Origin: Escherichia coli
Lineage (GTDB): Bacteria > Pseudomonadota > Gammaproteobacteria > Enterobacterales > Enterobacteriaceae
Assembly: GCF_030013595.1 (NCBI RefSeq)
Contig: NZ_CP122768.1
Reading direction: 5' to 3' (one strand)
Length of the DNA: 64,000 nucleotides
In this document: positions 17,400 to 19,119 of the stretch, piece by piece
How the letters are laid out: each line of letters begins with the position of its first letter
How positions within the stretch are numbered: the stretch's first letter is position 1
The notes under the pieces: generated by a model
Database searches by the model: none
What the model saw: only the letters and a program-made list of their open reading frames with translations
What the model was told of the DNA's origin: nothing
Made by a program: the position numbers and the translations under genes

Positions 17400-17834
17400 T
17401 TATTTATGAATATAATATAACTGAACATCATATTCATTATCACTTAAAACTATTAGTCGATCAGGAGATGTAAATGCTAATGAAAGATCATATGTTTCAT
17501 TTATCGAAAACAAACTCAATATGAAATTTGAAAAATTTTCGACATGAAGAGATATGCAAACATCTCCATTATAGAATATATTGCAAAGAATATCTTTTTT
17601 CACATTCAGTGTGCTTTCAACATCTCTCGCTAGATCATTAATATTTAAAGGTAAATTGAAAACTCTCCTTTCAATAATATTATCGGTTTTATTTATTGCC
17701 ATTAGCATTTCTCGATGCCACATGAAGTCATTCTTACGTAAGAATGATACATCAAAGGAAGTGACACCATTTAATTTAGAAGCATAATCTTTTGCTCTAA
17801 TTAAATTTAATTTATCTTCAAGGCTAATTTTCAT
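17400..17834 (-). CDS. Putative Rhs immunity protein
   Basis: 144 aa, very AT-rich, starts 37 nt after the Rhs stop on the same strand; no recognisable family. Confidence 0.5.
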   Translation of the reverse strand: MKISLEDKLNLIRAKDYASKLNGVTSFDVSFLRKNDFMWHREMLMAINKTDNIIERRVFNLPLNINDLARDVESTLNVKKDILCNIFYNGDVCISLHVENFSNFILSLFSINETYDLSLAFTSPDRLIVLSDNEYDVQLYYIHK

Positions 17835-17871
17835 AATATATATGATGATCCTTAGTTACAGGGTCATTGAT

Positions 17872-19119
17872 CTACTGATATCTATCACTTTTGAAATCGT
17901 ATGTTCTAGGATCAGCGCCCGGTTTAGGTTGTCCTGCATGTGCGTGAGGGCCAGGAGCCCTAGGATCTGCCGTGTGCTCGACTACAACTTTCTTACGTCC
18001 GTAGGCATCCGTATATTCATAATATCGCCCATGAGACCCTAAATCTTCCGAATATTTATAATTTGTTTGTCCCCTTCTTCTAGGATCATTTCCAACTGTC
18101 CATTGCCTATTAGGTTGCTGTGAACGAGGTATGCCCGCAAGATCTTTTGCTTTATTTAGTGCCTGACGACGGTTTCTTAATTCACCACATTTCAGACCAA
18201 GCGGATCTATCCAGCTTGCTGGATTAGGCGCGTAAGCATACAGGTTCAGCCCGCCCGCCAGCCCTATCGGATCCGTTACCATGAACCGCCCGACATCCGG
18301 ATCATAGTACCTGTGCAGATTGTAGTGCAGCCCCGTTTCCCTGTCGAGGTACTGTCCCTGGTAGCGCAGGTTCTGCTCCACCCCGCCGTGGTCCTTCTCC
18401 TGTATCGTGTTACCCCAGACCTGATACCCCGTCTCCCACACGATTTTCCCGTCGCTGTCCGTCATCTCTTCCGGCGCGCCGTTCACATCCGTGTGAAAAT
18501 ACAGTATCCGGTTCGGGCCCTCTTTGCCCGCCTTATCCACCCGCGCCAGCGGTTCATAACTCCCCGGGTCCCTGTAGATGTACAGGCTGTCTGTTCCCTC
18601 CGGCCTGCTCTCCTGCGCCAGCCGCATTCCGTCCCATAAAAATTTTGTCCGGTTGTACGGTTTACCGTCAGGACTGATGTGCTGTTTTTCCGTCCGCCTC
18701 CCCAGCGCATCGTACACATACCGGTACGTCCCCCGCGCTGTCGTCACTTCCACCATCCGGTGTTCCGCATCATAACGGTAACTCTGCGTGCCGCTCCGCC
18801 CCTCCTTTTCCACCGCACGGCCAAATTCGTCGTAACGGTAGTGCACACCACGGTAAGACATCAGCCGGTTGAACGGCACCACGCTGTTTTCTGCCGTGGC
18901 CCTTTCCCCCGCGCGCCGCGCCAGCAGGTTTCCCGCCGCGTCGTACTGCCAGCTCGCCAGATACCCCTCATCCTCCGAGCGGCACGCCGTGATGCGCCCC
19001 GTGGGGTCGTAGAAGTAATCCGTTTCCCCCCGCCGGCTGTGCCGCGTCTTCAGCAGTTCATCCTCGCCACTGTAGCTGTACTGCCGGTCCGTGAACGTCT
19101 CCGGTACCACCCCGCGCAT
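17872..19119 (-). CDS. Rhs protein, C-terminal segment: YD repeats, DPxGL core end and ~106-aa polymorphic tip; in frame with the upstream Rhs ORF across a TAG
   Basis: YD-repeat units ([37 protein letters not shown]), DPIGLAGG...DPLGL, then KCGELRNRR...GPHAHAGQ...DRYQ. Confidence 0.8.
   Translation of the reverse strand: [415 protein letters not shown]

Follow-up and report, generated by a model that had tools for sequence, protein, structure and literature searches.

A putative type VI secretion Rhs effector of Escherichia coli with a Tox-HNH-EHHH tip, two premature stop codons and a retained candidate immunity gene

TseI of Aeromonas dhakensis, a characterised counterpart of the locus considered here, is an Rhs effector of a type VI secretion system (T6SS); its C-terminal domain, once released, degrades plasmid DNA (Pei et al. 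2020, PMC7170923). Both the toxicity and the DNase activity of TseI are lost in the H1497A and HFH1507-1509AAA mutants, and its mapped C-terminal cleavage site directly follows the same PNPxxWxDPLGL consensus that is found in the gene analysed below; its immunity gene, tsiI, overlaps the TseI stop codon, and TsiI binds TseI (PMC7170923). In this work, we examine an Rhs gene, its C-terminal toxin tip and a downstream open reading frame (ORF) of 144 amino acids (aa) in a stretch of 64,000 nucleotides (nt) from Escherichia coli (contig NZ_CP122768.1, assembly GCF_030013595.1), referred to as the window, in which the minus strand carries all of the genes concerned. We read the locus as a T6SS Rhs effector with an EHHH nuclease tip that has been doubly nonsense-mutated while its immunity gene has been retained, and we assign to this reading as a whole a probability of about 0.8.

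In both TseI and the locus in the window, a C-terminal PF15657 domain follows the ...PNPxxWxDPLGL end of an Rhs protein encoded after vgrG and a chaperone gene, and in intact alleles of the locus, as in TseI-TsiI, the immunity start overlaps the toxin stop. H73 and HAH83-85 of the tip are the counterparts of the TseI residues H1497 and HFH1507-1509, with an equal spacing of 10 residues between H and HxH. The systems differ in their delivery parts, since TseI has the DUF4123 chaperone TecI and a VIRN N-terminus, whereas a prePAAR/PAAR N-terminus and a DcrB-related (Eag-type) chaperone are encoded here, and they differ also in that the window copy is nonsense-mutated.

Related candidates have been described in Salmonella pathogenicity island 6 (SPI-6), including PAAR-RhsA-Tox-HNH-EHHH proteins of ~1,500 aa and small orphans of ~149 aa (Blondel et al. 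2023, PMC10469887). They share the PAAR-Rhs-EHHH architecture with the window, and their downstream immunity candidates often likewise lack a recognisable domain; some of the partners are Imm50 proteins, whereas the 144-aa protein here is not. Colicins E7/E9 and the RhsA-HNHc/DUF7716 pair of Salmonella Tennessee (PMC13224477) are similar in carrying, at polymorphic-toxin C-termini, His-rich nuclease toxins that a small immunity protein neutralises by blocking the active site (PMC13224477), but they belong to other Pfam and immunity families, and the model of the tip described below lacks their ββα helix. The S. Tennessee nuclease, being a WHH-type HNHc toxin with DUF7716 immunity, was ruled out as a direct precedent.

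The toxin tip and the interrupted effector frame

The original prediction, made from the sequence of the window, had placed a tip of ~106 aa after the conserved Rhs core end (DPIGLAGG...DPLGL) and a 144-aa ORF 37 nt downstream of it. Both were recovered exactly (18192..17875 and 17834..17400, respectively), and the ORF listing and direct translation reproduced the reported peptide letter for letter. The tip had also been described as unassignable to any known toxin family, which is refuted by a match to Pfam PF15657, Tox-HNH-EHHH (independent E-value, i-E, 1.1e-9; model positions 2-59 of 69), and by the name 'HNH/endonuclease VII fold putative polymorphic toxin' given to near-identical copies in other E. 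coli by the Prokaryotic Genome Annotation Pipeline (PGAP). The intact allele matches the whole model (i-E 8.6e-10, 2-69 of 69), and PF15657 is also matched by 48 of the 51 aligned relatives. By sequence, then, the tip is assigned to Tox-HNH-EHHH, to which the T6SS DNase TseI also belongs. The features of the module are as follows:

22456..22485, minus strand: prePAAR motif AARQGDALLH at residues 7-16, with hydrophobic segments after it; read from the translation
17872..22503, minus strand: prePAAR/PAAR-Rhs effector frame, read here as 1543 codons against 1559 aa in intact alleles, with an internal amber codon
19168..19170, minus strand: in-frame TAG at codon 1112, truncating Rhs; CAG (Gln) in the closest relative, NZ_CM149870; from translation and alignment
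18193..18273, minus strand: end of the Rhs core (DPIGLAGG...DPLGL) with the putative aspartyl autoproteolysis motif; from translation
17875..18192, minus strand: toxin tip, 106 aa as encoded, a truncated Tox-HNH-EHHH domain; from Pfam PF15657
17938..17979, minus strand: putative catalytic motif E72-H73 ... H83-A-H85, catalysis assigned by equivalence to TseI; from conservation and the TseI mutants
17872..17874, minus strand: premature stop (TAG) of the tip, where all relatives examined have AAG (Lys); from DNA alignment
17824..17871, minus strand: untranslated remnant of the toxin tail, INDPVTKDHHIYYEN, and the original TAG, overlapping the immunity start ATGAAAATTAG; from alignment
17400..17834, minus strand: candidate cognate immunity gene, 144 aa, intact, of an unnamed family, 37 nt downstream of the tip stop
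22522..22974, minus strand: DcrB-related (Eag-type, DUF1795-like) chaperone gene directly upstream of Rhs; from the ORF and the PGAP name in a relative
23025..25019, minus strand: gene for the VgrG spike, part of the auxiliary T6SS module; from the ORF and the PGAP name in a relative

An exhaustive search of 1.84 billion cluster representatives returned 139 clusters at E<=1e-3, whose matches typically cover residues 5-121 of the intact tip and end no more than 9 residues from the protein C-terminus in 60 of the 63 full-length cases; in a profile search, the domain appeared on several scaffolds, Rhs and PT-HINT among them, and in organisms from the Enterobacterales, the bee gut, the Firmicutes and the Actinobacteria. 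Alignments of 63 and 51 representatives agree on five invariant positions, G55, H73, H83, H85 and Y105, while H117 is conserved in 98% of the 63 sequences and in all of the 51, and H116 and Y120 in 95% and 91% of the 63, respectively. The [ED]H motif and two further histidines that characterize PF15657 are thus present as E72-H73, H83 and H85. Of the His-containing motifs singled out in the original prediction (SHG, EH, PHAHAG), SHG has its histidine outside the conserved positions. The ratio of nonsynonymous to synonymous substitution rates (dN/dS) of the tip is 0.09-0.14.

An NCBIfam scan of the tip and the 144-aa protein gave nothing at E<=1; a sequence search of the PDB gave for the tip a chance SSU72 match only (E 0.12), and the toxin-family profile built from the 51-sequence alignment gave nothing there at E<=10. 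A weak match to Ntox47 (E 0.06), which had offered an apparent link to the BECR fold, was rejected, as it lay mostly over the Rhs core end and disappeared when the tip alone and 50 relatives were scanned. The same cause probably underlies the 'Ntox47 + EHHH hybrid' label of the 149-aa Salmonella Tennessee orphan CS349_18795 (PMC10469887), which is probably a single EHHH domain.

The N-terminal 578 aa of the Rhs protein match PAAR_motif (E 1.7e-4) and DUF6531 (E 7.8e-19) in a profile scan. Ahead of them stands AARQGDALLH, which we take to fit the prePAAR consensus AARxxDxxxH. The prePAAR-type motif, the PAAR motif and DUF6531 together identify an auxiliary T6SS effector module, of which the genes described here are the 3′ end (vgrG, Eag-type chaperone, prePAAR-Rhs effector and immunity gene); the chaperone and vgrG are named after the PGAP products 'DcrB-related protein' and 'type VI secretion system Vgr family protein' of a relative with 99.9% identity over this region. 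All parts of a prePAAR-Rhs effector with an Eag chaperone are therefore present, from the prePAAR and PAAR motifs to the DPIGL...DPLGL core end and the upstream vgrG and chaperone genes, except for an unbroken frame from PAAR to toxin, which is interrupted at codon 1112.

This frame runs from the ATG at 22503 to the TAG at 17872, and the two ORFs within it, 22503..19168 (1111 aa) and 19119..17872 (415 aa), share one reading frame; uninterrupted alleles of 1559 aa occur in NZ_CP062824 and NZ_CP082357. The first interruption is due to a single-base difference at window position 19170 (A here, G in NZ_CM149870) and leaves the tip attached only to the 415-aa ORF. The second lies at the end of the tip. 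In NZ_CM149870, NZ_CP029164, NZ_CP062824 and NZ_CP082357, the frame runs on for 16 codons as KINDPVTKDHHIYYEN followed by a stop, ending within the immunity start ATGAAAATTAG, and the toxin stop and immunity ATG of such intact alleles overlap by 11 nt; the Pantoea and metagenomic homologs have a like tail and a like overlap. Both the length of 106 aa and the 37-nt gap thus result from the premature TAG at 17872-17874. The lost tail holds H116, H117 and Y120 of the near-invariant HHxxY segment (Pfam model positions 60-69), so that the window allele, which stops after residue 106, lacks the complete domain that intact alleles possess. Neither interruption, nor the placement on the minus strand, had figured in the original prediction.

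Judged from these two stop codons, the effector is a pseudogene in this genome, and the truncated tip, deprived by the second amber of its HHxxY tail, would be inactive. Neither truncated product was found in a collection of ~15 billion proteins, and the exact immunity protein is present on 257 contigs. Elsewhere, near-identical cassettes show both intact and decayed forms. Copies with tip and immunity protein 98-100% identical to those of the window (WP_264123853.1, bearing the toxin name, and WP_000703398.1 / WP_000703397.1, 'hypothetical protein') form an orphan module at a ybf/rhsC-type locus in ~64 complete E. coli genomes, whereas the tip is carried on a full-length Rhs protein in 7 of 5426 complete E. 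coli genomes. These copies have the full 122-aa tip with its HHxxY tail and the 11-nt overlap; in the window, the tip ends 16 codons too soon and an amber codon interrupts the frame upstream of it as well. For several orphan copies of other strains, the annotation records internal stops. In NZ_CM149870, an independent 1-bp deletion at position 8649 (window 17948) lies just before PHAHAG of the same toxin, and PGAP annotates the Rhs gene as an intact coding sequence despite it.

The 144-aa protein as candidate immunity

The position and AT-rich composition of the 144-aa ORF had led to its proposal as an immunity gene. Its GC content of ~24-31% lies below that of the tip (~41-46%) and of the Rhs core (~60-65%), in agreement with that description. 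Homologs with 64-85% amino acid identity occur in Pantoea, Gilliamella and metagenomes, and dN/dS is 0.17-0.31; the ORF is hence a genuine gene and no chance product of AT-rich sequence, and by these values it is under purifying selection and diverges faster than its toxin. The family is small and unnamed throughout, with 16 clusters in a single-sequence search and 29 in a profile search of 5.8 billion sequences. Pfam gives no match to the 144-aa protein even at E<=10, nor to its remote relative described below, and the protein is accordingly neither Imm8 nor Imm50, the two immunity families listed as Tox-EHHH partners by Zhang et al. 2012 (PMC3482391). Searching the PDB with the immunity profile gave only a chance GGDEF match (E 0.45).

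The genomic context of these homologs speaks for an immunity function. In Pantoea alhagi (L011), a homolog with 70% identity overlaps by 11 nt the gene of a 382-aa DUF8093-Tox-HNH-EHHH protein, which is not an Rhs protein and whose toxin tip is 88% identical to that of E. coli; on a metagenomic contig, a homolog follows an Rhs-EHHH fragment. A divergent Rhs gene (L015) has after its EHHH tip (71% identical) an uncalled 148-aa ORF that is a remote homolog of the 144-aa protein (hhalign E 2e-4). As adjacency is conserved across three delivery scaffolds, the 144-aa protein is very probably the cognate immunity protein of the tip, in line with what had been proposed from its position. The ORFs downstream of the distant EHHH toxins L016 and L018 show no detectable homology to it.

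Homologs in Gilliamella (L008, 1-12435) and Variovorax (L019, 4400-7200) stand without a toxin in arrays among SMI1_KNR4/SUKH, DUF7716, DUF4284 and DUF2750 immunity-type genes or Rhs fragments, and these arrays are poly-immunity islands. An 89-aa ORF upstream of the Gilliamella homolog was considered as a toxin remnant and ruled out, and no EHHH remnant was found beside the Variovorax homolog. A scan for promoters and terminators around the immunity gene of the window gave counts no higher than in shuffled sequence.

Predicted structures and competing explanations

The structure of the intact 122-aa tip was predicted with AlphaFold2 from the 51-sequence alignment, giving a model of high confidence (predicted local distance difference test, pLDDT, 95.8; predicted template-modelling score, pTM, 0.89) that is a prediction and not a solved structure. 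It contains a helix at residues 8-19 and strands at 29-34, 45-47, 55-61, 67-73, 83-88 and 118-120, and the tail missing from the window allele is folded in it at pLDDT ~96. In this predicted model, E72-H73 close strand 67-73, which places an acidic residue and the putative catalytic His at the end of a β-strand. No helix follows strands 67-73 and 83-88, as a ββα-metal fold would demand, the sole helix being 8-19. No similarity to solved His-Me nucleases was found by structure or sequence, nor a structural match to domains of the ColE7/E9 type, and a Foldseek comparison of the toxin model with the PDB returned nothing below E 1. The earlier guess of a His-Me-finger or HNH-like nuclease agrees with the family label and with the DNase activity of TseI; the high-confidence model does not resemble a classical His-Me finger.

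A different relationship is suggested by PDB entry 5T86, a CdiA-CT/CdiI pair of E. coli A0 34/86, whose two chains are matched separately by the toxin and immunity models with modest scores; the top structural match of the immunity model is a CdiI immunity protein, and another CdiI stands at rank 6. By a rough estimate, two separate searches would meet by chance on both chains of one entry in only ~1 of 10,000 cases, which makes coincidence unlikely. The 5T86 toxin has a BECR fold and is the best structural match of Salmonella Rhs2 (Ntox47) with its immunity protein SciX, according to a 2026 preprint that also states that 5T86 has no functional study. The pair differs from the window cassette in having no detectable sequence similarity to it, in being delivered by contact-dependent inhibition (CDI; type V secretion) rather than by the T6SS, and in a toxin activity that is unpublished. 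On the basis of these models, we tentatively raise the possibility that the Tox-HNH-EHHH family has the BECR-like α+β fold of the 5T86 CdiA-CT and that the 144-aa family is related to its CdiI and to Salmonella SciX, although we would not favor it at present. One of the 51 Tox-HNH-EHHH representatives also gives a weak match (E 2.4e-3) to PF00545 Ribonuclease, the barnase/RNase family, a faint hint in the same direction.

Several considerations count against a doubly mutated T6SS effector with a nuclease tip and retained immunity. No T6SS core cluster lies within the 64-kb window; the DNase activity would be carried over by analogy from TseI, whose chaperone and N-terminal domain differ; an HNH-type mechanism is not secure, because the toxin model is unlike solved His-Me nucleases; the immunity protein was modelled with low confidence (pLDDT 60); and the TAG codons, being confined to this window, could be sequencing errors or suppressed. 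The HNH assignment of Tox-EHHH by Zhang 2012 (PMC3482391) and Jablonska 2017 is itself a prediction, the HNH/EndoVII His-Me label having been given since 2012 on sequence patterns, and if the toxin were not a His-Me (HNH) finger, its target might be RNA, or DNase chemistry might take place on a non-HNH scaffold. We regard this alternative as a minority view that deserves to be taken seriously, and a histidine-dependent nuclease action like that of TseI, argued by analogy, is kept as the best-supported mechanism.

If the stop codons were sequencing or assembly errors, or if an amber suppressor read through them to yield full-length Rhs, the effector would still be functional. It fits this idea that each disruption arises from one changed base and yields the same stop (CAG to TAG and AAG to TAG), that a suppressor of the supE type would put Gln back at codon 1112, and that the truncated products are seen in no other assembly. 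The window, however, offers no suppressor tRNA or other sign of suppression, and the rest of it differs from the closest relative only by scattered substitutions (~0.1%) and gives no hint of a sequence of poor quality; moreover, decay of this module is common, as the frameshift of the sister strain and the internal stops of orphan copies attest, and a functional effector appears improbable. Still less credible is an unrelated hitch-hiker of the Rhs tip cassette in place of an immunity gene, even though the 144-aa protein matches no known immunity family, the ORFs after the L016 and L018 toxins are not detectably related to it, and the Gilliamella and Variovorax copies have no adjacent toxin. 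Adjacency with the 11-nt start/stop overlap is kept in E. coli, in Pantoea with another delivery domain and in the metagenomic Rhs; orphans in poly-immunity arrays are typical of immunity genes; and purifying selection and the two CdiI matches point the same way, leaving the hitch-hiker very improbable.

On the preferred reading, that of an EHHH effector mutated twice beside its immunity gene, intact alleles would act as follows. The Rhs shell would be mounted on VgrG and shot into adjacent bacteria, autoproteolysis at the aspartyl-protease motif ending in ...DPLGL would free the 122-aa C-terminal toxin, and the toxin would degrade target-cell DNA as a histidine-dependent nuclease, by analogy with TseI. 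Translation of the immunity gene would be coupled to the toxin stop through the 11-nt overlap, and its 144-aa product would bind the toxin and so block it in the producing cell and in kin. In the window, the amber at codon 1112 would part the delivery portion from the tip, and the second amber would drop the last 16 residues of the toxin.

The locus and its meaning

The module lies at an E. coli rhsE-type locus, placed by its flanking genes: on one side narZYWV, yddE, nhoA and yddH together with a SymE-like gene and an ISAs1/H-repeat transposase, on the other vgrG and the gene of the DcrB-related chaperone. Among complete genomes, the closest is NZ_CM149870, collinear with window 9299-44574 at ~99.9% identity. 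Collinearity stops at 44574, beside hicB; the remaining 19.5 kb (~44575-64000) match other E. coli genomes at ~94% identity in prophage genes, those for tail tip, tail fibre, recombinase and DEAD/DEAH helicase. Over 17 kb compared with the closest relative, 10 of 19 substitutions cluster within 277 bp of the Rhs core (18454-18730), which suggests a gene-conversion tract from another rhs copy.

Several neighbouring elements were also observed:

17015-17344, plus strand: SymE-family type I toxin gene, adjoining the immunity gene
17086-17214, minus strand: isrA small RNA (Rfam RF01385, 112.6 bits), antisense within the SymE-family gene
15727-16863, minus strand: intact 378-aa ISAs1-family (H-repeat, ydcC-like) transposase, beyond the SymE-like gene
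25241-25597 and 25594-26163, minus strand: overlapping small ORFs (118 and 189 aa) upstream of vgrG, each a 'hypothetical protein' in the closest relative

Together, the SymE-family gene and isrA look like a type I toxin-antitoxin pair, and in NZ_CP029164 a symE-like gene likewise stands beside successive orphan Rhs-CT/immunity modules. The ISAs1/H-repeat transposase is the usual companion of E. coli Rhs loci.

The cassette as such is ordinary and already recognisable by Pfam and PGAP, and it is only modestly novel, in its unnamed immunity family and in the hint against the 'HNH' label. For the family, an 'unclassified toxin' becomes a member of a group with a characterised DNase, TseI, and the immunity family, at present outside Pfam and NCBIfam, could become the third Tox-EHHH partner. 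If the relationship to 5T86 were true, a T6SS Rhs cassette and a CDI cassette would share a toxin-immunity ancestor, and either a DNase would have arisen on an RNase-type scaffold or the substrate of the family would need re-testing; its confirmation would correct a fold label propagated through Pfam, PGAP names and several effector surveys. For the organism, the intact immunity gene would keep its protective value when relatives fire the intact toxin. Decay of the effector with persistence of its immunity gene is a common end state of interbacterial weapons and would explain resistance without aggression.

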